DNA of 64,000 bases, taken from contig JBCCHT010000058.1 of assembly GCA_039028615.1 (NCBI GenBank), positions 1 through 64,000 on the forward strand, written 5' to 3'. The position numbers and the translations under genes are program-made. Below, piece by piece: positions 248 to 27,571 of the stretch. The notes beneath the pieces were generated by a model that worked only from the letters and a program-made list of their open reading frames with translations, searched no databases and was not told the DNA's origin. Numbering within the stretch: the stretch's first letter is position 1; the number at the start of each line of letters is the position of its first letter. The stretch comes from Myxococcota bacterium. Lineage in GTDB: Bacteria > Myxococcota_A > Polyangia > Nannocystales > Nannocystaceae.

Positions 248-1801
248 ATGGGATTGCTAGACAAGATGTTCGGCGGCGGCACCAAGCTCGAACTCAAGCT
301 CGACACCGACAAGATCCCCGAAGGCGGAACCCTCTCCGGCACCCTCTCCCTCTCCGGCGGCAAGAAGCCCCTCAAGCTCACCGCCCTGAAGGTCCGCCTC
401 GTCTACATGAAGGTCGAGTCCAACGACGACTCCCCCATCCCCGACATCGACGTCCAGGTCCTCCTCGACAACACCGTCGTCGCCAACGGCGAGCTGCCCC
501 CCGGGTCCCTGCAGAAGCACGACTTCTCGTTCAAGGTCCCGACCGGCACCGACCCCGACGGTGACTATCGCGTGATCGCGGTCGCCGATATCCCCAAGGT
601 CAAGGACCCCAAGGCGGAAGCCAAGCTCACCGTCATCGCCCCCGATCCCTCGGGTGCCAACCAGGGCATGTTCAGCCGCCTCACGGGCAAGCCGAACGAG
701 GACGAGATCCTGGCGCAGTTCCCCGGCTTGATGTCGGCCGACGAAGACGAGCGCTCCGATGCGCTGCACGAGCTGACCTGCGCCTCGTATGACGAGGACA
801 ACAACTTCGTGAACATCGCGGGCAAGCTCGGCCAGATGATGAACGAGGGCTCGGCCGATTTGCGGGCAGCGGCGCTGCAGGCATGGGGCAACGTGCTCAA
901 CAACCGAGCGCAGCCCGAGCACATCCAGGCGCTGTCGAACATGGCGGCCGACCCGGCCGTGGCCTCCGATCGCCGCCTGATGGACGAGGTGATCTCGGTG
1001 GCGGCCAAGTTCGCGGAGGAAGGCGCGGCCCCGCTGGTGAAGTGGTTCGCGCAGCACGAAAATCCCGAGATTCGCAAGGAGATGGCCGACCGCATTCGCT
1101 TCGATGCGGACGACGAGTTCCTCGAGAAGCGGGCGATCCTCTCCGCGATGGTCAACGACCCGGACGCGGGGGTCCGTGCGTCGGCGGTGGGGGGCCTGAG
1201 CGAGTACAACGACGAGGCGGCGATGGTCCAAGACTTCGCCCAGCGCTCGATCTCCGATCCCTCGCCCGAGGTCCAGGCGGCATGCCTGTCGGCGCTGACG
1301 CTGTCGCATCACAACGGCCACGGCGAGGTGGTGTTCGCGACCTTCCAGCAGCACCTGCAGAACCAACACGTGAAGGTGCGCAAGGAGATCGCCGAGTCGT
1401 GCCACTGGCTGCCCACCGATCCGCGACTGGCCGGCATCGTGCACGCGCTGCTCAGCGACCCGAGCCCCGAGGTCCGTCGCGCGATGGCGTGGCAAGGGGT
1501 CAACATGAGCGAGCACCCCGAGCTGGGTGAGCTGTTCATGCGGGCGTGCGACGACCCCGACCAAGAGGTCGCCCAGGATGCGCTCAAGGGCATGGGGCGC
1601 CTGCTCGGGTGGGACGCCGGCGTGCAGTTCTATCGCCAGCGCATGGCCCAGCGGCCCACCGAGGAGACCTACTGGGGCGTCTACTACGGCATCTACGGCG
1701 ACCTCGACGAGGCGCCCGCGCTGGCGCTGATGAAGGAGCTGGCGTCGTCGCACTTCGCCGACGTGGCGAGCTCGGCTCGCGAGGCGCTCGAAGACGCGTA
1801 A
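248..1801 (+). CDS. Spo0M/arrestin-like N-terminal domain fused to HEAT repeats
   Basis: ATG at 248 (MGLLDKMFGGGTKLELKLD...GGTLSGTLSLSGG...ADIPKVKDPKA) resembles the Spo0M family. The C-terminal two-thirds has repeated DPDAGVRASA / DPSPEVQAAC / DPSPEVRRA HEAT motifs. Confidence 0.7.
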   Translation: MGLLDKMFGGGTKLELKLDTDKIPEGGTLSGTLSLSGGKKPLKLTALKVRLVYMKVESNDDSPIPDIDVQVLLDNTVVANGELPPGSLQKHDFSFKVPTGTDPDGDYRVIAVADIPKVKDPKAEAKLTVIAPDPSGANQGMFSRLTGKPNEDEILAQFPGLMSADEDERSDALHELTCASYDEDNNFVNIAGKLGQMMNEGSADLRAAALQAWGNVLNNRAQPEHIQALSNMAADPAVASDRRLMDEVISVAAKFAEEGAAPLVKWFAQHENPEIRKEMADRIRFDADDEFLEKRAILSAMVNDPDAGVRASAVGGLSEYNDEAAMVQDFAQRSISDPSPEVQAACLSALTLSHHNGHGEVVFATFQQHLQNQHVKVRKEIAESCHWLPTDPRLAGIVHALLSDPSPEVRRAMAWQGVNMSEHPELGELFMRACDDPDQEVAQDALKGMGRLLGWDAGVQFYRQRMAQRPTEETYWGVYYGIYGDLDEAPALALMKELASSHFADVASSAREALEDA

Positions 1802-1839: not shown

Positions 1840-2486
1840 TCTCGCGTGGCTCCTGATGTCACGCGCAGGGTGGCTACAACTGTTGTTGGTCTACGAGATC
1901 GAGCGGCTCGAATTCACCCCGAGCCGGGGGGTCGTGGGCGTCGAACAAGGGTATGTTGCCCGTGGTAACTTTGAGGGGAAACGCACCCATGCAATGCGTG
2001 ACTCTCTGGATCTTGGTGCTACCGTCCTGCCCGAGATCTAGGGGAGACTCGCAATCGTCGGTGGGGATCCGGCGTGGCAGAGTCGTCGTTCGTCATGAGC
2101 GACTCTGTCGGGGAATGCCGTCATGACTCGCCCGTAATCGGGCGCTCGCATCGTTGCCAATTTCGTGCGCCGAGTAGGGACTCGGCTGTCGAGAGGCCCG
2201 AGGGGCACCGGCCGTAGTTCGGCCGGTGTACCCCGTCAGGGCCGCCCTACGCCGAATTTTCGCTCCGTTCGGGGGTCGTGTCTCCACGATCTCGACCGGT
2301 CACGGCGTCGATCGTTCGCTCGCTCGCGACCGATTGCGCCAGTGCACGACCGCTACTTTTTTTTTCGAGAGTGAACAAACAACCAAGGGTACGACATCCC
2401 CTGCAGTAGCGGCACGTCGAGCCTATCGACACTTCCGCTCACCGGTGGGCCGTATCCCATCGTTCTACGAAAACGACCACAATCCA

Positions 2487-3485
2487 ATGTACCGATATCC
2501 GTTTACGCCTTATCCCAATGGTTGGTACCGCGTGGCTTATGCTCATGAGCTGTCAATTGGTGAAGTGAAGCCAATCGAGGCGCTGGGGCGTGATCTCGTG
2601 GCGTTTCGGGGCGAGGACGGGCGCGTTCGCGTGCTCGATGCTCACTGCCCGCACCTGGGGGCGCACCTGGGCTACGGAGGCAATGTCGTCGGGAACGACA
2701 TCGCGTGTCCGTTCCACGACTGGCGCTTCAACGGCGAGGGCGAGTGCGTCGACATCCCCTACTGCTCGGGTCGAGTGCCCAAGCGCGCCCGGGTGGACGC
2801 GTGGACGGTCTGCGAGCGCAACGGGGTGGTCTTCATCTGGTGGGATCATCAAGGGCGTCAGCCCAGCTTCGAGATCCCGGTGGTCGCCGAGGTCGACGAT
2901 CCGAAGTGGACGAAGCCGCTCGAGTTCACCTGGCGCACGCGCGTGCACATTCAAGAGGTGGCCGAGAACGCCCTCGATCTCGCCCACTTCGGCAAGGTGC
3001 ACCACTACCTCGACTTTCCCGAGCTGCGCTCGTTCACGACCGAGGACCACGTGCTTCAGGTCGGCCTGAGCGCGGGCCGACGAGTGATGGGCGTGACCGG
3101 CCGCAGCACGATGGACATCACCTACCACGGCCTGGGGGTGGTGCACGCTCAGGTCGCGGGGCCCGGCATCGAGCTGGCGGTCATCCTGACCACGACGCCC
3201 GTCGATCAGGAGCATTGCGACATCCACATCGCGGTCATGAACCGCAAGTCGCGGATCCCCCTGAAGGACTTCGCGCTCCGTCGCTACATGCGGTGGGAGA
3301 TCGGCACCGACTTCGCCCACGACATCCCCATCTGGGAGCACAAGCAGTATCGAACCCGCCCGCTGCTGGCCAAGGGCGACGGACCGATCATGAAGGTCCG
3401 CAAGTGGGCGGAGCAGTTCTACGAGGAAGCGGCGACCCGCGACGAGGCGGCGACCGACAAGACCCACTTGCCGCTGGTCGGATGA
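2487..3485 (+). CDS. Rieske [2Fe-2S] non-heme iron oxygenase, cholesterol 7-desaturase (Neverland/DAF-36)/KshA-like
   Basis: PYPNGWY start, CPHLGAHL...CPFH Rieske motifs, ENALDLAHFGKVH iron motif, C-terminal DIPIWEHK...DGPI..RKWAEQFY. Confidence 0.9.
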   Translation: MYRYPFTPYPNGWYRVAYAHELSIGEVKPIEALGRDLVAFRGEDGRVRVLDAHCPHLGAHLGYGGNVVGNDIACPFHDWRFNGEGECVDIPYCSGRVPKRARVDAWTVCERNGVVFIWWDHQGRQPSFEIPVVAEVDDPKWTKPLEFTWRTRVHIQEVAENALDLAHFGKVHHYLDFPELRSFTTEDHVLQVGLSAGRRVMGVTGRSTMDITYHGLGVVHAQVAGPGIELAVILTTTPVDQEHCDIHIAVMNRKSRIPLKDFALRRYMRWEIGTDFAHDIPIWEHKQYRTRPLLAKGDGPIMKVRKWAEQFYEEAATRDEAATDKTHLPLVG

Positions 3486-4324
3486 TGCGCGCCGCCAATA
3501 CCGAGCGCACTCGGTTTCCCTTCCGCGCCTATCCCGACGGGTGGTTCGCGGTGGCGAAGCTGGCCGAGTTGCCCGTACGCCGCACGCTCTTTGGTCGCCC
3601 GACGCTGATCCGTTGGCACGGCCAGCGGATCGAGGCGACGGATCTGCCTCACCTCGAGGTGCGCGACGGCTTGATCTTCGCGTGGCACCACGCAAGCGGC
3701 GAGCCGCCGAGCTTCCGCATCCCGCCCGTCGACAACACGCGCTGGTCCAAGCCGGTCATCGACACCTTGGAGGTCTCGAGTCACCCGCAGGAAGTGCTCG
3801 AGAACACGGTCGACACGCAGCACTTCATCAAGGTGCACGGCTATCGCGACTTCGAGTCGCTGCAGCCCGCGTACACCGAAGGGCCGCACTTTCACGCGAG
3901 CTACCGCTTCACGCGGGCACTGCTCGACCATCCCGCGAGTCCGCGCGTCCCCATCGAGATCGAGATCCAGGCCTCCGGGCTCGGCTACTCGCGGGTCGAG
4001 GTCACGGTGGTGCCCGTGGGACTCCGCGCTCGTCTCGAGGTGATGGTGACGCCGCTGCTCGACGAGCGCTGCACCCTGCGCTCCGCCACGCGCGTGCAAT
4101 CGCCCGCGCTGCCCGGCCCGTGGTCCTCGCTGCAGTGGCCGGTCGATCGGCTCTTCGACGGCGTCGCTCATCTCGCGGCGCTCGGCGGTCGAGCCGACGT
4201 CCGCGACGACCTGCGCCTGTGGCAGCACAAGATCTACGCGACGCGGCCCGTGCTCATTCGCGACGACGGCCCCATCGGTTCGTATCGCCGCTGGGCTCGC
4301 CAGTTCATGCGCGAAGCCGCCTGA
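3482..4324 (+). CDS. Rieske oxygenase paralog lacking the [2Fe-2S] subdomain (catalytic domain only)
   Basis: ATGA overlap with the upstream stop. YPDGWF start, no CxH/CxxH, retains ENTVDTQHFIKVH and DLRLWQHK...DGPIGSYRRWARQF. Confidence 0.85.
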   Translation: MMRAANTERTRFPFRAYPDGWFAVAKLAELPVRRTLFGRPTLIRWHGQRIEATDLPHLEVRDGLIFAWHHASGEPPSFRIPPVDNTRWSKPVIDTLEVSSHPQEVLENTVDTQHFIKVHGYRDFESLQPAYTEGPHFHASYRFTRALLDHPASPRVPIEIEIQASGLGYSRVEVTVVPVGLRARLEVMVTPLLDERCTLRSATRVQSPALPGPWSSLQWPVDRLFDGVAHLAALGGRADVRDDLRLWQHKIYATRPVLIRDDGPIGSYRRWARQFMREAA

Positions 4325-4364
4325 GGTTTTCGCCCTCTCACCCTGTGTTCATCTGGAGCTTTTC

Positions 4365-5411
4365 ATGTCCCCCGCCATTCCATCGAGCTGGTACTACGTC
4401 TGCGAGACGAGCGAGGTCGCCGTCGGAGAGATCCGTCGGGTCGAGGCCTTCGGTCGCACGCTTGCGCTGTGGCGCACACAAAGCGGTGCCGTGCATGCCA
4501 CGGACGCGACCTGCCCTCATCTCGGCACCGACCTGACCAAGCGCGGTCGGGTGGTGGGCGAGGAGCTGGAGTGCTTCACGCACAAGTTCCGCTACGACGG
4601 CGCGGGGGACTGCGTCGCCACGGGCACGGGGGAGATGCCGTGTCGAAGCCAGGGCGTGCTGCGCAAGTACCCCGTGCAGGAGACGGCCGGCTTCGTGCTC
4701 GTGTGGTACGACGCCCACGGCCGCGAGCCGACCTGGACGATCCCCGAGGCCCCGCTGGGCTACGAGGGGCGCGGGCGGCCGTGGAAGAGCCAGTACGTGT
4801 TCGAGACCTGCGCGCAGACGATCAACGAGGACAACTTCGACATCGGCCACCTCTACTCGTGGCACGAGCTGCACGAGGTCGCGTCGGCGCCGGTCGAGGT
4901 CTACGGGCCGAGGCTGCGCATCGTCCATGACTTTCGGCGTCACTCGCTGGTGCTCAAAAAGCCCCTGCCGCCGCCCTTCGACGTGCTCTCGCAGGAGATC
5001 GTGAGCCGCTACAGCGCCGACCTGTACGGCCACGGGCTGACCCTGTCGCAGATCGACCTGCCCACGGTGGACTTTCACGTCGAGGACGTCATCTGGGTGA
5101 CGCCGATCGACGACAAGCGGATCCGCTACACCACCTTCCTGCGCCAGATCCGACCCCAGGGCGCGCGAACCTTGCGACAGCGCATGCTCGACCGGGTGCT
5201 GCACCCGCTGCTGGTGCCGATCTTCGTGGCGCGACTCCGCCAAGAGCACCGCCACGAGGGCTACGGCTTCTGGCAGAACCAAACCCACATCGCCGACCCG
5301 ATCCTCCGCGAGAGCGAAAACGAGTACGTTGGCGTCTATCGGGAGTGGTGCAAGCAGTTCGAGCCGGGCCCCGCGCCCGAGCAGCTCACCGTGTTGCGGA
5401 GGCCGGCATGA
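4365..5411 (+). CDS. Rieske oxygenase paralog with divergent ligands
   Basis: CPHLGTDL...CFTH Rieske motifs, EDNFDIGHLYSWH iron motif, C-terminal HEGYGFWQNQ...YREWCKQF; ggag RBS upstream. Confidence 0.85.
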   Translation: MSPAIPSSWYYVCETSEVAVGEIRRVEAFGRTLALWRTQSGAVHATDATCPHLGTDLTKRGRVVGEELECFTHKFRYDGAGDCVATGTGEMPCRSQGVLRKYPVQETAGFVLVWYDAHGREPTWTIPEAPLGYEGRGRPWKSQYVFETCAQTINEDNFDIGHLYSWHELHEVASAPVEVYGPRLRIVHDFRRHSLVLKKPLPPPFDVLSQEIVSRYSADLYGHGLTLSQIDLPTVDFHVEDVIWVTPIDDKRIRYTTFLRQIRPQGARTLRQRMLDRVLHPLLVPIFVARLRQEHRHEGYGFWQNQTHIADPILRESENEYVGVYREWCKQFEPGPAPEQLTVLRRPA

Positions 5412-5911
5412 TCATCCCGCCGCGCTGGGTGATGCTGTGGCTGCTGGTGAGCATCGCGATCACGGGCTGGGACGCGAGCTTCGTGCTGATGCGTCCGCAC
5501 TCCATGCCCGGAGGAGACCTGGCGTTCTTGTGGCCGCCCTATGAGACCTACGTGGTCGTCGACCACGGCTACGGCGACCTCACCAACGGCTGGATCGCGG
5601 GCCAAGCGGTGATGACACTGGTCGAGGTCGTGCTCGGGTTGTCCGCGCTGCTGCTGTGGCGGGCGGGTCACGCGATGGCGGGTCCGGTGGCGCTGGTGAG
5701 CATCGCCATGACGGGGGCCAAGACCAGCCTGATCTTCCTCGCCGAGTGGATGTCCGGCCTCGAGAACGTGGGCCACAACTCCACCGCCGACCTCATCTCT
5801 CTTTATGTGCTGCCCAACGTGGTCTGGGTCATCGTGCCCATCATCGCGTGCGTGGCCCTGATGCGCTCGATGAGCGTCCCGCTGAATGCGAGCCCGTCAT
5901 GCGCAACCTGA
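5408..5911 (+). CDS. EXPERA/emopamil-binding-protein-like 4-TM membrane protein (sterol isomerase-like family)
   Basis: ATGA overlap; four hydrophobic segments; WD..FVL.RP, LW.PY..Y..VD..YG, E, KT and LYVLPN.VW.IVP motifs resemble EXPERA proteins. Confidence 0.7.
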   Translation: MIIPPRWVMLWLLVSIAITGWDASFVLMRPHSMPGGDLAFLWPPYETYVVVDHGYGDLTNGWIAGQAVMTLVEVVLGLSALLLWRAGHAMAGPVALVSIAMTGAKTSLIFLAEWMSGLENVGHNSTADLISLYVLPNVVWVIVPIIACVALMRSMSVPLNASPSCAT

Positions 5912-6756
5912 GCCCGCATTCGTCGAGCGAGACACCCGCCGTGCTCTCGCCGGAGCCGAGGGGGTGGTTCGCACTCGTGCCCTCCCACCAGCTCGGTCGC
6001 GGTGGATCCTGGTCGGGGGTCGTGGCCAACCAGGCCTGTCGCATCACACGGGCCGCCGACGGCTCGATCCGCGGAGAGGGGGCGCTCGGTCCCTTCGTCG
6101 AGCAAAACGGCTTCGTGTTCGCGTGGCACGGTGAGGGCGAGCCGAGCTTCGTCTTGCCCGCGTTGCCCGAGCAGGGCTGGAGCGCCGCCAAGTTCCACCG
6201 CATCGATGCGCAGACCCACCCGCAAGAGGTCTACGAGAACAGCATCGATCACGCGCACTTTCCCATCATCCACAAGTACGCCGACATCGAGGTACGACAG
6301 CCGATGGTCCTGCACGCGCACTCGATGCGGGTCGGCTACCGGATCTCCCGAGCGCTGCCCGGCAGCCAGCGACGATTGACGAGCGAGTTCGAGGTCCAGC
6401 TGCACGGGCTCGGCGTGGCGCACAATCACATCGAGGTCCCGCTGCTCGGCATGCGGACGAGGATGCTCGCGCTCGCCACTCCGACCACCCCGGGTCACGT
6501 CACCCTGTGGCTGCGGGTCAGCGTGCGCTTCGATCGTCCGGGGGTGTTGGGGGCCTTCACCCGCGCTCTCACCCCGCTGGCCCTGGCCGCGACGGCGCAG
6601 GGCATCGTGCACGATTTTCGCCAAGACCTGAGCATCTGGGCCCACAAGCGCTACCTCGAGCGCCCCGTGCTCGTGGCGGGCGACGGCCCCATCGGTCGCT
6701 TCCGTCGCTGGGCTCGACAGTTCTATGGTCCCGTGCCGGCTGGAGCGGTCTCGTGA
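5899..6756 (+). CDS. Second Rieske oxygenase paralog lacking the [2Fe-2S] subdomain
   Basis: PRGWF start, no CxH/CxxH, retains ENSIDHAHFPIIH and QDLSIWAHK...DGPIGRFRRWARQFY; overlaps the upstream gene by 13 bp. Confidence 0.85.
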   Translation: MRNLSPHSSSETPAVLSPEPRGWFALVPSHQLGRGGSWSGVVANQACRITRAADGSIRGEGALGPFVEQNGFVFAWHGEGEPSFVLPALPEQGWSAAKFHRIDAQTHPQEVYENSIDHAHFPIIHKYADIEVRQPMVLHAHSMRVGYRISRALPGSQRRLTSEFEVQLHGLGVAHNHIEVPLLGMRTRMLALATPTTPGHVTLWLRVSVRFDRPGVLGAFTRALTPLALAATAQGIVHDFRQDLSIWAHKRYLERPVLVAGDGPIGRFRRWARQFYGPVPAGAVS

Positions 6757-7766
6757 GCATCGAGTCGTCCGTTCCCTTCGGCGCCAACCGAGGTCGCCCC
6801 TCCCTGCCGCCGTATCCCAATAGCTGGTATCGCGTCGCCTTCTCCCACGAGGTCCCCCGCGGCACGGTGAAGAGTGTGTCGGCCTTTGGCCGCGACCTGG
6901 TCGTGTTCCGCGGCGAAGACGGTGAGCTCGGTGTCCTCGATGCCTACTGTCCGCACCTGGGGGCGCACCTGGGCCACAACGGCCGAGTCGAGAACAACGC
7001 CGTCGTGTGCCCCTTCCACGCGTGGAGCTTCGACAAAGGAGGCGAGTGCACGAAGATCGCCTACTGCGACAAGATCCCCAAGCGAGCGCGCGCCGAGGCC
7101 TTCGAGGTCGACGAGCGCAACGGCATGGTGTTCGTGTACCACCACGATCGTGGCCAGGCGCCCGCCGCCCGCGTCCCCGAGATCCCCGAGCTGTCCGATC
7201 CCGACTGGCTTCCCTACCGCTCCATCACCGTGCCCGTACGGGCGCATGTGCAGGACATGGGGGAGAACGCCGTCGACGCCCCGCACTTTCAGGTGGTGCA
7301 CGGCACCAAGGACGTCCCCGACATCGCGCGCGTCGAGGTCTCCGACGATCGCTTCGTCACCCGCCTGGTCGATCACTTCGACTTCTTCGGCAAGTCGCGC
7401 CCGGTCGACATCGAGATCAGCATCTATCAGCCCGGCTTCACCACGGTGCGGATCGGGCTGTTCATGAAGGTGCTGATCGTGACGACGACGACCGCGGTGA
7501 GCGAAGACCTCACCACGCAGACTCACTCGATCGTGGTCCGGCGCGGCCGCGTGCCGCTGCTGGCCCGCCTGTTTCGCTGGTTCTTCATGCGGGAGATTCG
7601 GCGGCAGCTCGAGCAAGACCGCCAGGTGCTCGACTACAAGCGTTACAACGAGGTGCCCGTGCTGTGTGCCGAGGACGGGCCGGTCATGAAGTACCGACGC
7701 TGGTTCTCGCGCTTTTACTCCGACCAGACGCGCGCGAGCCGACGACGCCTGGACGTCGTCGGCTGA
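6753..7766 (+). CDS. Rieske [2Fe-2S] oxygenase, Neverland/KshA-like
   Basis: GTGA overlap; PYPNSWY, CPHLGAHL...CPFH, ENAVDAPHFQVVH, QDRQVLDYK...DGPVMKYRRWFSRFY. Confidence 0.9.
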   Translation: MSIESSVPFGANRGRPSLPPYPNSWYRVAFSHEVPRGTVKSVSAFGRDLVVFRGEDGELGVLDAYCPHLGAHLGHNGRVENNAVVCPFHAWSFDKGGECTKIAYCDKIPKRARAEAFEVDERNGMVFVYHHDRGQAPAARVPEIPELSDPDWLPYRSITVPVRAHVQDMGENAVDAPHFQVVHGTKDVPDIARVEVSDDRFVTRLVDHFDFFGKSRPVDIEISIYQPGFTTVRIGLFMKVLIVTTTTAVSEDLTTQTHSIVVRRGRVPLLARLFRWFFMREIRRQLEQDRQVLDYKRYNEVPVLCAEDGPVMKYRRWFSRFYSDQTRASRRRLDVVG

Positions 7767-7790
7767 GGACGGACTCGGTTCGCGGCTGCG

Positions 7791-8294
7791 CTACTGCACC
7801 GCGGCGCGGGCTTCGTTCCCCTGCGGCACGCCCTTGGGCCCGATCAACACGCCGTGCTCGAGGTGATCGGAAAGCCCTTCGAGGACCTTGTCGAGCAACC
7901 CGGTGATCTTGCCGCGCATGGCGACCGCGTTGAGGGCCGCGCCCAGAGGCCCGAACTTCGGGCGGTAGTCCATCGTGATGGTGACCTCGCTCCGGTCATC
8001 GGCCAGGGGCGCGACAGTGAAGACCGCGGTCACATCTTGCGCGGGCAGAGGCCCCTCGAGGACGTCGACGGTCATCGACACGCCGTCTTCGACAGCGACC
8101 ACCTCTTCGATGGCTTGCCCGCCTCCGTAGAAGTGACAAGCGCGCTTTGCGCCTACTCCACTCGGCACGGCGTTGAGGATCGGGGAGCTCTCGACTCCCG
8201 GATGAAAGCGATGCACTCCCCCGAAGTCGGCCAGGGCCGCCCAAACCCGGTCGGAGGAGGCATTTACGGTGCGTTTGACGTCGACTTGGCGCAT
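7791..8294 (-). CDS. SRPBCC (START/polyketide cyclase-dehydrase) family protein
   Basis: VWAALADFGGVHRFHPGV...GVGAKRAC...SEVTITMDY pattern, 167 aa; aaggaa RBS. Confidence 0.85.
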   Translation of the reverse strand: MRQVDVKRTVNASSDRVWAALADFGGVHRFHPGVESSPILNAVPSGVGAKRACHFYGGGQAIEEVVAVEDGVSMTVDVLEGPLPAQDVTAVFTVAPLADDRSEVTITMDYRPKFGPLGAALNAVAMRGKITGLLDKVLEGLSDHLEHGVLIGPKGVPQGNEARAAVQ

Positions 8295-8364
8295 GGCTTC
8301 GTTTCCTTGATCGAGAGGCTAGTGTCCGTTCATGCACATCACAATCGCCGTTTTCGGTAACTGA

Positions 8365-8382
8365 ATGTGCAACGATGCACAT
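8365..8382. promoter_or_regulatory. Dyad, probable regulator operator in the SRPBCC/LysR divergent promoter
   Basis: ATGTGCA-acga-TGCACAT perfect inverted repeat, with a third half-site TGCACAT at 8333-8339. Confidence 0.45.
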
Positions 8383-8383
8383 C

Positions 8384-9319
8384 GTGAACTCGGATGATCT
8401 CCGCTTCGTGCTGGCACTTCACGACGAAGGCACGCTGGTGCGAGCAGCCGGCAAGCTTCGGGTGAGCCACACGACCGTCGCCCGACGCATCGCGGCGCTG
8501 GAGGCCGAGCTGGGGAGCACGCTGTTCACCAAGGCCGCCGCCGGGCAAGTGCTCACGGCGGCCGGCGAAGCGGTGAGAGACGTGGCGCGTCGCGTGCACG
8601 AGGAGCTGACGTCGTTGGAGCGCGACGTCGTCGGGCGTGATGCGAGGTTGAGCGGGACCCTTCGCGTGACCACGATCGACGCGCTCGTCCTTCACAATAC
8701 CCGCGAGCTGTCGAGCTTCGGCGAGCGATACCCCGATGTCGAGCTCGACGTCGTCGTGGACAACCGAATGCGGAGCTTGACTCGTCGCGAAGCCGACGTG
8801 GCGGTCCGGTTCACGAACGCTCCCGCGGAGCACTTGGTCGGTCGGAAGATCGGTCGGCTCGAGTTTGCGCTGTACGGAGCACGAGAGCTCATCGAAGGTC
8901 AGGCCGACCCGGCCGATGTCGCCACCTACCCCTGGCTGTCATGGTCGGAGTCGGAGCGGACGGGCATGGCCGAGCACTTCTTTCGGCAGCACGCCGATGC
9001 CGGTCGACCGGCGATGCGGGTCGACTCGTCGATCAGCCTGTGGGCGGCCGCTCGAGCGGGTGTGGGGGTGGCGTTGCTCGGGTGCTTGTGGGCGGATCGA
9101 ACGCCCGGCCTGCAGCGGATCGGGGGCCTGTGGCCCGACGCCGGCTTGGACCTGTGGATCTTGACCCATCCCGACCTTCGACGAACCTCGAGAGTCCACG
9201 CGTTCATCGAGCACTTCGGCGATGCGATGCGGTGTCACCAAGACACCATGAGCGGCGCGCATCCGCTGGTTCCGCCGATCGAGAACGTCGCGCCGTTGCC
9301 GACGGGCAACGGCGCTTGA
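8384..9319 (+). CDS. LysR-family transcriptional regulator
   Basis: NSDDLRFVLA...AAGKLRVSHTTVARRIAALE HTH, LTAAGE, YPDVEL, READVAVR. GTG start at 8384 preferred (ATG 8375 is the alternative). Confidence 0.92.
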   Translation: MNSDDLRFVLALHDEGTLVRAAGKLRVSHTTVARRIAALEAELGSTLFTKAAAGQVLTAAGEAVRDVARRVHEELTSLERDVVGRDARLSGTLRVTTIDALVLHNTRELSSFGERYPDVELDVVVDNRMRSLTRREADVAVRFTNAPAEHLVGRKIGRLEFALYGARELIEGQADPADVATYPWLSWSESERTGMAEHFFRQHADAGRPAMRVDSSISLWAAARAGVGVALLGCLWADRTPGLQRIGGLWPDAGLDLWILTHPDLRRTSRVHAFIEHFGDAMRCHQDTMSGAHPLVPPIENVAPLPTGNGA

Positions 9320-26170: not shown

Positions 26171-27571
26171 TCATGCGCTCGCGCGCGTGGCCTGCACCGC
26201 GTTGGCGGGCTCGGGCGCCTCGTTCGAGGGCTCGGGCGCGACCGCAAGGGGGGCTCGGCTGCGCTCCTTTTCCGGGGGCCCGAACGATGGACGCATGCGC
26301 CACTGCTGCTGGGTGATGAGCCGAGCACCGCGGCGGTAGCGGATGTACGACCAGACCCACTGGAAGAACACCAGCGCGCGGTTGCGGAAGCCCACCAGAT
26401 ACAAGATGTGGACGAAGCACCACGCGAGCCAAGCGACGAAGCCCGTCATGCGGAAGCGGCCGCTCTGCACCACGGCCGAGGCCCGACCCACGGTGGCCAT
26501 GATGCCTTTGTCGAAGTACTCGAAGTCTTCCCGCGGCTCCGAGCGGAGGTCGTGCAGGATGTTGTTCGCGGCGTGGCGCCCCTGCTGAATGGCCGCGGGG
26601 GCGAGGCCGGGGACCGGCTCACCGTCGGCTTTGCGTACGTGAGCCTGGTCGCCGATGACGAAGACCTCGGGATGCCCGGGCAGGCTGAGGTCGTCCGAGA
26701 CCACCACGCGCCCCGCCCCATCGAGCTCGACGCCCAGGCTGCGCCCGACCGACGAGGCCCGCACGCCCGCCGCCCACAGTACGGTGTCGGCGTAGACCAT
26801 CTCGCCACCCGCCTCCACGTGGTCGTCCGAGATGTCGGTGACCCGGGTGTTGGTCCACACCGTGACCCCGAGTTTCTCCAAGCTCCGGGTTGCTGCACGT
26901 GACATCTCGGGGTCGAACGCCGACAACAGGCGCGGCCCGCCCTCGATGAGCATCACTCGGGTGCCGCCCGGATCGATGCGGCTGAAGTCGCGGCTCAACG
27001 TATGGCGGCTGAGTTCACCCAGCGCCCCGGCCAGTTCGACACCCGTCGGGCCACCGCCCACCACCACGAAGGTCAGCAAGCGTCGGCGTCGCTCGGGGTC
27101 GGCCTCGATTTCCGCCCGTTCGTACGCCGTCAGCACTCGGCGACGGATCTCCGTGGCTTGCTCGATCGTCTTGAGCCCCGGCGCATGCGGCTCCCACTCG
27201 TCGTGCCCGAAATACGCATGCGTCGCCCCGCAGGCGAGCACCAGCGAGTCGTACTCCAGCGGCCCCGCCGACGTGTGCACGCGACGCTCGGCGAGGTCCA
27301 CCCGCTGCACCTCCGCCATGCGCACGCTGATCCGCGGGTCGTTCTCGAACAGCGACCGAATCGGCGTCGAGATGTCCGCCGGGCTCAGCCCCGCCATCGC
27401 CACCTGGTACAGCAGCGGCTGAAACAGGTGATGGTTGCGCCGATCGACCAGCGTGATGCGTAGCGAGCGAGGCCCGCTCGACAGCAGCCGCCGGGCCGTA
27501 TTCAGCCCCGCAAAGCCCCCGCCCACGATCACCACATGCGTGGTCTCTTCCGATCTGGCCCTATCGCCCAC
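26171..27571 (-). CDS. ndh: Type II NADH dehydrogenase (NDH-2)
   Basis: VVIVGGGFAG, NHHLFQPLLYQVA, GLKTIEQA, VVGGGPTGVELAG, WAAGV, AIQQG, YFDKGIMATVGR. Confidence 0.9.
   Translation of the reverse strand: MGDRARSEETTHVVIVGGGFAGLNTARRLLSSGPRSLRITLVDRRNHHLFQPLLYQVAMAGLSPADISTPIRSLFENDPRISVRMAEVQRVDLAERRVHTSAGPLEYDSLVLACGATHAYFGHDEWEPHAPGLKTIEQATEIRRRVLTAYERAEIEADPERRRRLLTFVVVGGGPTGVELAGALGELSRHTLSRDFSRIDPGGTRVMLIEGGPRLLSAFDPEMSRAATRSLEKLGVTVWTNTRVTDISDDHVEAGGEMVYADTVLWAAGVRASSVGRSLGVELDGAGRVVVSDDLSLPGHPEVFVIGDQAHVRKADGEPVPGLAPAAIQQGRHAANNILHDLRSEPREDFEYFDKGIMATVGRASAVVQSGRFRMTGFVAWLAWCFVHILYLVGFRNRALVFFQWVWSYIRYRRGARLITQQQWRMRPSFGPPEKERSRAPLAVAPEPSNEAPEPANAVQATRASA

Follow-up and report, generated by a model that had tools for sequence, protein, structure and literature searches.

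A conserved cassette of complete and clusterless Rieske oxygenase paralogues in a Myxococcota genome: a possible mixed-subunit system for sterol oxidation

The window analyzed here is a stretch of 64,000 nucleotides from a bacterium of the Myxococcota, in which positions 2487–7766 of the + strand hold six co-oriented genes, G1 to G6. The junctions between them measure -4, +40, -4, -13, and -4 bp, which confirms the four overlaps and the single 40-bp gap of the first-pass annotation. Five of the genes are paralogues. All five carry the N-terminal W motif, the D-x2-H-x4-H motif, and the C-terminal R-x-W-x2-Q/R-F motif described there, and all five pass the Pfam KshA_C model (40–129 bits, cut-off 23.3). 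They are only 23–38% identical to each other, and each forms an old clade. GC3 of the six genes is 0.85–0.91. Positions 2000–8300 are identical in a separately assembled contig, with zero differences and zero gaps, although the same source DNA may underlie both. No sigma-70 promoter consensus, + strand terminator, or Rfam match was found. A reductase or ferredoxin gene is found neither in the operon nor among the 38 further window ORFs scanned, and the scanned ORFs include no steroid-catabolism genes. An unassigned pyridine-nucleotide oxidoreductase ORF lies at 26174–27571 of the window.

The paralogues differ in their metal centers. The C-x-H...C-x2-H motif and a Pfam Rieske match are restricted to G1, G3, and G6, so that the earlier description of five Rieske oxygenases holds for the iron site and KshA_C (5/5) but not for the [2Fe-2S] motif. 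G1 (2487–3485, + strand) is a complete Rieske oxygenase subunit, with the Rieske motif at residues 54–77 and the iron site D164/H167/H172/D279. It matches both Pfam Rieske and KshA_C, its best PDB match is KshA (169 bits), and it has its own orthologue clade. G6 (6753–7766, +) is also complete, with the Rieske motif at residues 66–89; it is 38% identical to G1, and its placement, on a long branch of the tree, is unsure. G3 (4365–5411, +) is complete but atypical, combining a Rieske motif at residues 50–73 with NEDNFD-x2-H-x4-H. Gly occupies its usual third-ligand Asp column, an invariant Glu stands one residue earlier (46/46), and the invariant residues R292/E294/H295/E298 lie at the site of F-x2-D in the other paralogues. 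From this spacing, E298 is inferred to be the third iron ligand of G3.

G2 (3482–4324, +) and G5 (5899–6756, +) are iron-site-only subunits. Each has one Cys, zero Rieske match, and a clean deletion of about 55 residues that removes the cluster-binding subdomain, giving a W-to-D spacing of 91–95 residues vs about 151 in the cluster-bearing paralogues; the basal Rieske-domain strands are retained. G2 matches KshA_C with 88 bits and keeps D111-x2-H-x4-H and the third Asp, while G5 keeps N114/D117/H120/H125/D243, invariant in its clade. The AF2 model of G5 (pLDDT 82) has KshA as its top Foldseek match (TM 0.74–0.77). In the alignments, the N/D/H/H/D iron-site residues are kept in 8/8 sequences for G1, 11/11 for G2, and 12/12 for G5, and a 2-His-1-carboxylate site with bridging Asp is present in G1, G2, G5, and G6; the roles of these residues were assigned from an excerpt of PMC10380055 and general background on the enzymes. 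Assembly error as the source of the deletions was ruled out by the matching second contig and by the same deletions in unrelated contigs. With two clusterless subunits, the five-enzyme pathway proposed earlier becomes a system that needs electrons in trans.

Absence of the cluster is a repeated feature of the family. The Rieske motif is missing in 12/12 members of the G5 clade (one of them, P0180, is cut at the N-terminus), and the bridging Asp and three iron ligands are invariant in all 12 at 33–52% identity. G2 orthologues occur with and without the cluster, a clusterless G2 being 52% identical to a cluster-bearing one. Clusterless sequences make up 14/37 rows, which need at least 4 changes on the tree, and a single origin was rejected (p-AU 2e-39, 37-row set). 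Full-length relatives with the deletion account for 33 of the best 150 profile matches, 4 of which are query rows, the search profile itself favoring clusterless sequences. Atlas clusters of about 281 aa contain the C-terminal family only. In the family search around genome G042, no other genome among 151 gave a full-length clusterless match.

The cassette recurs well beyond the host. G1, G2, G3, and G5 represent four orthologue groups (quick tree) that co-occur in 15/15 metagenome loci containing a G3 orthologue, as well as in two gammaproteobacterial MAGs. Another cassette gene adjoins the G3 orthologue in 15/15 metagenome loci, vs 0/14 loci with distant homologues. Synteny across Myxococcota, a suggestion of the first-pass annotation, was borne out only in part: the cassette is conserved across distant lineages, not among the host's relatives, the G3 profile matching 0/400 other class-level and 0/400 other phylum-level genomes. 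No G6 orthologue was seen in other cassettes, no G5 relatives were found in viral contigs, and no G3 orthologue was found on plasmids (best of 6 records <30%).

The division into complete and iron-only subunits recurs in the orthologous cassettes. In L001 and L081, G1 lacks the cluster and is immediately preceded by a Rieske-only stub that has no iron motif. Gammaproteobacteria with the cassette encode a complementary Rieske-only stub, and in genome G042 a single stub of this kind accompanies an EBP-like gene and three genes with only the iron site. Three clusters are kept, on differing genes, in 5/5 fully seen cassettes with clusterless genes, namely the window, L037, L038, L001, and L081, which represent about three independent lineages. 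The clusterless G5 is retained in hosts from 34% to 72% GC. Some loci are less regular: L039 has G1-G2-G3 but neither G5 nor G4, L048 looks decayed (truncated and fused), and the G3 of L041 is divided between two frames. The ORF that follows it, judged by eye to be the start of an ERG4/24 reductase, was rejected as such, having zero Pfam match and zero match to the host enzyme. A GST-like ORF, also identified by eye, is present only in L001, at 5 kb upstream.

G4 (5408–5911, +) is predicted to be a four-helix membrane protein of divergent EXPERA/EBP fold. It shows four hydrophobic peaks in hydropathy, its family profile has human EBP as its sole PDB match (E=0.0019), Foldseek places EBP in its first two rows (E 0.03), and the Atlas value is 0.92. 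The homologue search returned one relative only, at 92%. Pfam gave zero matches on G4 at E<=0.01, and its orthologues score 15.7, 17.2, and 24.6 bits against PF05241 (cut-off 25.7). The assignment as an EXPERA protein made earlier is thus retained for the helices and EBP matches, on weaker evidence than a Pfam match. Compared with the 11 activity-determining residues of EBP listed in an excerpt of PMC4263179, G4 keeps 7/11 as read by eye from the alignment, with E80->D and W101->Y counted as kept: acidic residues stand at EBP positions 80 and 108 (D22, D52), Y104, Y111, N193, and W196 are also kept, and H76, R110, E122, and T125 are not. The host has a separate canonical EBP elsewhere in its genome.

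Several pointers make a steroid the likely substrate of the cassette enzymes, as judged by homology and gene context. Among solved structures, KshA ranks first for G1, for the G3 profile, and for the G5 profile. The best G1 match among 72,556 plasmids sits in a complete cyanobacterial steroid gene cluster that includes EBP, and Rieske genes have an EXPERA/EBP-like gene for company in three different clusters (the cassette, G042, and Planktothrix). Among the relatives are fusions with SCP2 and with MMPL/sterol-sensing domains, one of the latter (P0099) falling inside the G2 clade. The similarity to KshA is nevertheless distant and at family level only, and the fold-class matches after KshA are the non-sterol enzymes SxtT/GxtA. 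The name 'cholesterol 7-dehydrogenase' is an automatic database label carried by 9/15 members of one G3 cluster. Elsewhere in its genome, the host encodes oxidosqualene cyclase, squalene epoxidase, an SdmA-like protein, EBP, and ERG4/24. Because these genes lie on other contigs, a role of the cassette in core sterol synthesis was rejected. The expected co-occurrence with oxidosqualene cyclase holds in the host, but the related carriers G401, G042, and G730 yielded no cyclase-domain match. An ERG4/24 search of these three gave zero matches, and its control likewise matched nowhere.

The preferred interpretation, to which we give a probability of roughly 45%, is a Rieske oxygenase system of mixed subunits, encoded by the operon, that feeds electrons in trans to several sterol-oxidizing iron sites. 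In the ring-shaped Rieske oxygenases, electrons reach the iron of each subunit from the cluster of the adjacent one. The co-translated subunits would assemble as mixed trimers or hexamers, and electrons would pass from a reductase encoded elsewhere to the cluster of G1, G3, or G6 and then through the retained bridging Asp to the G2/G5 iron. G2 and G5 probably borrow the cluster from their neighbors, and supply in trans by cassette partners is somewhat better than an even bet. Up to five different pockets might then carry out successive hydroxylations or desaturations. Less firmly, the substrate would be a sterol, self-made in the host and eukaryote-derived in cyclase-less carriers, and G4 may serve the soluble oxygenases by binding or isomerizing it in the membrane.

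Several observations weigh against this mixed-subunit interpretation. The operon structure also fits separate enzymes, the pattern of three clusters was drawn from some three independent lineages, and in G042 a single cluster stands against three iron-only genes. A clusterless subunit cannot feed its own neighbor in a closed trimer, so some iron sites need another route, and neither the operon nor the scanned ORFs supply a reductase or ferredoxin. Three related carriers show no cyclase domain, the KshA likeness is distant with non-sterol enzymes in the same fold class, L039 lacks G5 and G4, L048 looks decayed, and 4/11 EBP activity residues are missing in G4. A prediction of the G3 + G5 complex with alignments scored 0.07 vs a mark of 0.32, but the controls were not folded and the result bears neither way.

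The genes may instead encode five separate homo-oligomeric enzymes of a sterol pathway, with G2 and G5 reduced by a soluble Rieske ferredoxin or NdmD-like reductase encoded elsewhere. Such an arrangement has a precedent in NdmC, served by a reductase-borne Rieske domain (PMC10380055, in excerpt), and agrees with the wide spread of clusterless relatives among the profile matches and Atlas clusters. It is nonetheless unlikely: the donors seen in related cassettes are not ferredoxins but stubs derived from G1 and located within the operon, the basal Rieske-domain strands persist in clusterless genes, and none of the loci listed has an NdmD-like reductase in the cassette. Rather unlikely, too, is the same architecture acting on a non-sterol substrate, such as a secondary metabolite, an aromatic amine, or another lipid. 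The family-level KshA similarity, the automatic origin of the cholesterol labels, the cyclase-less carriers, and the polar, atypical pocket of G3 (invariant R192, R292, E294, H295) would all suit it, but the three EXPERA/EBP-accompanied Rieske clusters and the SCP2 and sterol-sensing fusions would not, nor would the lack of PKS, NRPS, or similar genes beside the cassette in the loci listed.

Doubt also attaches to the catalytic role of G2 and G5, which might serve without redox chemistry, be it as structural subunits, as helix-grip proteins that bind sterols, or as metal-dependent isomerases/dehydratases, leaving G1, G3, and G6 alone to oxygenate. Their own electron source is missing, and beta-subunits without catalytic centers are common in this enzyme class (PMC12445004, in excerpt). 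The invariance of the bridging Asp and three iron ligands across the G5 clade, and the switching of G2 between cluster-bearing and clusterless forms with little else altered, make such a role quite improbable. Decay of tandem duplicates, with G2 and G5 as degenerate copies, can draw on L048 and the split G3 of L041. It is very improbable, given that the G2/G5 frames are open with GC3 of 0.86–0.88, that this clusterless G5 persists across hosts of 34% to 72% GC, and that the paralogues are old clades.

If the mixed-subunit interpretation holds, its significance would be mechanistic as well as biosynthetic. Characterized Rieske oxygenases are symmetric rings with both metal centers in each alpha subunit, NdmC being the exception found in print. 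Repeated splitting and re-pairing of the two centers would offer a natural test of inter-subunit electron crossing and of whether several irons can be served by one cluster. The cassette would also provide candidate enzymes for the steps by which bacteria modify sterols beyond cholesterol, and possible catalysts of regioselective steroid C-H oxidation; unexplained oxysterols have been reported from a marine myxobacterium (PMC10202945, in excerpt). Since half of such genes have no Rieske domain, their annotation easily goes wrong, and expressed alone they would show no activity. A wider and more doubtful proposal is an asymmetric, multi-active-site class of Rieske oxygenases, in which cluster and iron are re-dealt among complete, iron-only, and cluster-only paralogues. 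The iron sites would then outnumber the clusters that supply them within one assembly, which, together with a membrane EXPERA protein, would perform several sterol oxidations. Its cassette would move between sterol-making predators and small-genome, cyclase-less bacteria, remodeling host or prey sterols into new steroids. The literature searched contains no description of the six-gene cassette, in agreement with the first-pass annotation.

Among known systems, KshA (3-ketosteroid 9alpha-hydroxylase; PDB 2ZYL, 4QDC, 4QDF) is the top sequence and fold match for the cassette subunits and shares their KshA_C, iron-site, and C-terminal motifs. KshA is an alpha3 ring with both centers (PMC12445004, in excerpt), in contrast to five divergent paralogues, two of them clusterless. 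The suggested KshA placement stands for domain and fold but not for the clades, as G1, G2, G3, and G5 group apart from two KshA-like references chosen by gene context (quick tree; G6 unsure). Neverland has an N-terminal membrane anchor, which is absent here (hydropathy peak >1.6 in none of G1–G3, G5, and G6). Neverland/DAF-36 is a Rieske enzyme acting on cholesterol (PMC12445004, in excerpt), and automatic database labels give G3 relatives a cholesterol 7-desaturase-type name. SdmA, the Rieske sterol C-4 demethylase of bacterial sterol synthesis (PMC10202945, in excerpt), had also been proposed as a relative. This identity was ruled out, as G1/G3/G6 score 57–85 bits against a cut-off of 600 (NF052579) and G2/G5 have zero match; the host's SdmA-like gene lies on contig C3 (342 bits).

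Plasmid p2 of Planktothrix agardhii (NZ_LR882940.1) carries three tandem G1/G6-like Rieske genes, 38–42% identical to G1, and an EBP gene. All three keep the cluster, however, G2, G3, and G5 orthologues are absent, and the gene cluster has its own cyclase, P450s, and reductases; no characterization of it was found in the literature searched. The Ndm enzymes of caffeine demethylation resemble the cassette in a different respect. NdmC is a clusterless catalytic subunit, like G2 and G5, fed by the Rieske domain of NdmD, and NdmA/NdmB form mixed alpha3-alpha'3 rings (PMC10380055, in excerpt). The subfamily is distant (G1 scores 57 bits vs NdmA and 169 bits vs KshA), and neither the operon nor the scanned window contains the Rieske-bearing reductase or the GST-like subunit of NdmCDE. 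The donor is a reductase in the Ndm system, whereas the candidate donors in the cassette are paralogous subunits or stubs, in a family that has lost the cluster several times and has a membrane EXPERA gene attached.

The six genes at positions 2487–7766 of the window all lie on the + strand, with junctions of −4, +40, −4, −13 and −4 and a GC3 of 0.85–0.91. Five of them (G1, G2, G3, G5 and G6) are mutual paralogues with 23–38% identity, all of which pass the Pfam KshA_C model, and G4 encodes an EXPERA-type membrane protein. The gene coordinates and motifs given by the first-pass annotation were right, but its count of five Rieske oxygenases was not, as the Rieske motif, which marks the [2Fe-2S] cluster, is present only in G1, G3 and G6. 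In G2 and G5, about 55 residues with the cluster ligands are missing, and the first Rieske-domain strands and the entire catalytic domain are retained; the AF2 model of G5 (pLDDT 82) has KshA as its closest structure (TM 0.74–0.77). The operon contains no reductase or ferredoxin gene. The stretch is identical in a separately assembled contig, possibly from the same source DNA, and a marine metagenome is the sole sequencing run containing it. Upstream of the operon, a gene at 248–1801 (+) encodes HEAT repeats fused to a Spo0M-like N-terminal domain. After the operon follow a convergent SRPBCC-type (Polyketide_cyc2) gene at 7791–8294 (−) and, divergent from it, a LysR regulator at 8375–9319 (+); among the listed related loci, none was noted to have this pair next to the cassette.

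The cassette is real, conserved and undescribed. The G3 clade is tight (45 relatives aligned, 40–56% identity), and a metagenome scan yielded 29 loci, of which 15 hold a G3 orthologue and the other 14 distant homologues; a second cassette gene adjoins G3 in 15/15 of the former and 0/14 of the latter. The whole set is also present in two small-genome gammaproteobacterial MAGs, G401 (locus L001) and its relative G730 (L081). These 17 loci amount to fewer than 17 independent cases, several being near-identical or from one dataset, and their contigs mostly terminate inside the cassette; G4 orthologues occur in six of the 17, with most contigs ending in this way. Locus L039 carries G1-G2-G3 without G5 or G4, and the cassette at L048 looks decayed. 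With five candidates scored per genome, the G3 profile found no genome but its own among the 401 compared at class level and the 401 at phylum level, which covered five same-genus genomes that are 72–95% complete, and it matched two of 201 genomes around G401. This wide and patchy spread suggests horizontal movement of the cassette, although operon GC equals genome GC. A TetR-family regulator lies directly upstream of the cassette at L037:597–1193 (Pfam match) and, by similarity judged by eye, at L038:349–948 and L039:978–1664; the 685-bp upstream gap in the window holds no TetR-family gene. A full-text literature search, in which subscription journals were thinly covered, returned no paper describing the cassette or KshA-fold subunits that lack the cluster.

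The surprising feature of the cassette is the repeated parting of cluster and iron site among its paralogues. In a quick IQ-TREE catalytic-domain tree of 72 rows, G1, G2, G3 and G5 each group across hosts (SH-aLRT 91–92, 94, 97 and 95, respectively), and G6 forms a long branch of unsure position. None of the 12 G5-clade members, one of which has a cut N-terminus, has a Rieske motif. The cluster is present in G2 of L037, L038, L039, L001, L045 and L081 and missing from G2 of the window, L042, L043 and L061. G1 is clusterless in L001 and L081. The 14 clusterless rows among 37 imply at least four changes on the tree, and a single origin was rejected (p-AU 2e-39) in this 37-row test, from which two rows with cut N-termini and three Rieske-only stubs were left out. 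The bridging Asp has a functional role in Rieske oxygenases. The iron site (N, bridging D, H, H, third D) is kept in the alignment in 8/8 G1, 11/11 G2 and 12/12 G5 sequences, counted on domains cut by a motif filter that only the stubs failed among cassette genes. In L001 and L081, a Rieske-only gene of 209–236 aa without the iron motif immediately precedes the clusterless G1. Three clusters are kept in 5/5 fully seen cassettes with clusterless genes, from about three lineages only; they fall on G1, G3 and G6 in the window, on G1, G2 and G3 in L037 and L038, and on the stub, G3 and G2 in L001 and L081. Genome G042 departs from this count: its G1-like stub lies next to an EBP-like gene and three genes with the iron site only. 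Clusterless proteins are common in this subfamily: 33 of the top 150 matches to a clusterless profile, which favours such proteins, are clusterless and full-length, four being query rows.

The differently split G042 cluster (L023:7940–12979, contig C62; 3.4 Mb genome) also includes a PhyH dioxygenase, and its EBP-like gene is 22% identical to the Planktothrix EBP (E 5e-11). In proteins P0082, P0084 and P0094, a complete clusterless unit comes after a Rieske domain, an arrangement resembling a stub that has been fused again with its partner.

According to two papers (PMC10380055; PMC12445004), the cluster of one Rieske oxygenase subunit passes its electrons to the iron of the next, at 12 Å compared with 45 Å within one subunit; NdmA and NdmB form mixed rings, and NdmC, without a cluster, relies on the Rieske domain of NdmD. 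Given these precedents, a subunit that has only the iron site but whose bridging Asp is intact is one that such a mixed ring or complex would accommodate. G1, G3 or G6 may bind G2 and G5 and supply them with electrons in trans. A mixed-subunit Rieske oxygenase passing electrons in trans to sterol-oxidising iron sites is the best, still tentative, reading, with a probability of 0.45. Because a clusterless subunit cannot feed its own neighbour, more than one subunit arrangement is conceivable. G3 is the oddest paralogue: NED-x2-D-x2-H-x4-H is found in 45/46 aligned sequences and R-x-EH-x2-EG-x2-W, at the position of F-x2-D in the other paralogues, in 46/46, which suggests a polar pocket or an altered iron site.

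The case for a sterol-type substrate is circumstantial, but its parts agree in direction. Among solved structures, PDB searches rank KshA as the best relative, and the top plasmid match of G1 among 49 matched records belongs to a Planktothrix steroid cluster (252 bits; next 187), whose Rieske proteins group with G1 and G6 (support 92 in the 72-row tree). Of 11 long related matches scanned, four carry SCP2, and P0099, a clusterless protein of the G2 clade, has MMPL/sterol-sensing domains fused to it. Two points count against such a substrate. A search for a cyclase domain gave nothing in G401, G042 or G730 (completeness given for G042 only, 100%), so these carriers would need foreign sterols, and the fold is common to non-sterol enzymes as well. 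Human EBP is the sole PDB match of the G4 family (E=0.0019; top fold-search rows E 0.03). G4 keeps the two superfamily-wide acidic residues and lacks H76, R110, E122 and T125; it therefore belongs to EXPERA, though a standard delta8-delta7 isomerase is improbable.

The host genome (12.3 Mb, 68% GC), probably that of a myxobacterium, encodes an oxidosqualene cyclase with the DCTAE motif, scoring 387 bits against human lanosterol synthase and 192 against squalene-hopene cyclase. Since this intact cyclase (contig C5), a squalene epoxidase, an SdmA-like gene (342 bits, below the cut-off), a canonical EBP and an ERG4/24 reductase all lie on contigs other than the operon's, the operon is additional to core sterol synthesis. 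On contig C10 (L068:7066–10526, −), a degenerate second triterpene-cyclase-like gene without DCTAE adjoins the squalene epoxidase. Contigs C7, C18, C33 and C43 hold four further stand-alone Rieske genes of the same broad group. A longer, single G1-like gene occurs in genomes of the same genus, and similar long forms are fused to SCP2.

Planktothrix agardhii No.2A plasmid p2 (NZ_LR882940.1, about 36.5–59.1 kb; L083, L085) holds a complete steroid gene cluster with adjoining transposases. It encodes a DCTAE-containing cyclase 41% identical to the host's, an epoxidase-like monooxygenase, squalene synthase, P450s, an SDR, an FAD oxidoreductase, an ERG4/24-like reductase, an EBP (emopamil-binding protein), three Rieske proteins, a carbamoyltransferase and a cupin-like protein. 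Cyanobufalins, which are cardiotonic steroids, were reported from Planktothrix-dominated blooms in PMC7024214, and the p2 cluster is a candidate source; the literature search found no paper assigning them a gene cluster. In the 72-row tree, one Planktothrix Rieske gene pairs closely with P0268, a protein of Moorena producens. Burkholderia cenocepacia (NZ_CP091014.1, L084:6904–8933) has two unannotated tandem G1-like Rieske genes, 30–33% identical.

Identity of the cassette oxygenases with SdmA was rejected, as was identity of the cassette with NdmCDE. Neverland has a membrane anchor. The cassette would operate in the manner of KshA/Neverland-type oxygenases, its metal centres being split as in NdmC; this resemblance to KshA and Neverland may fall short of identity.
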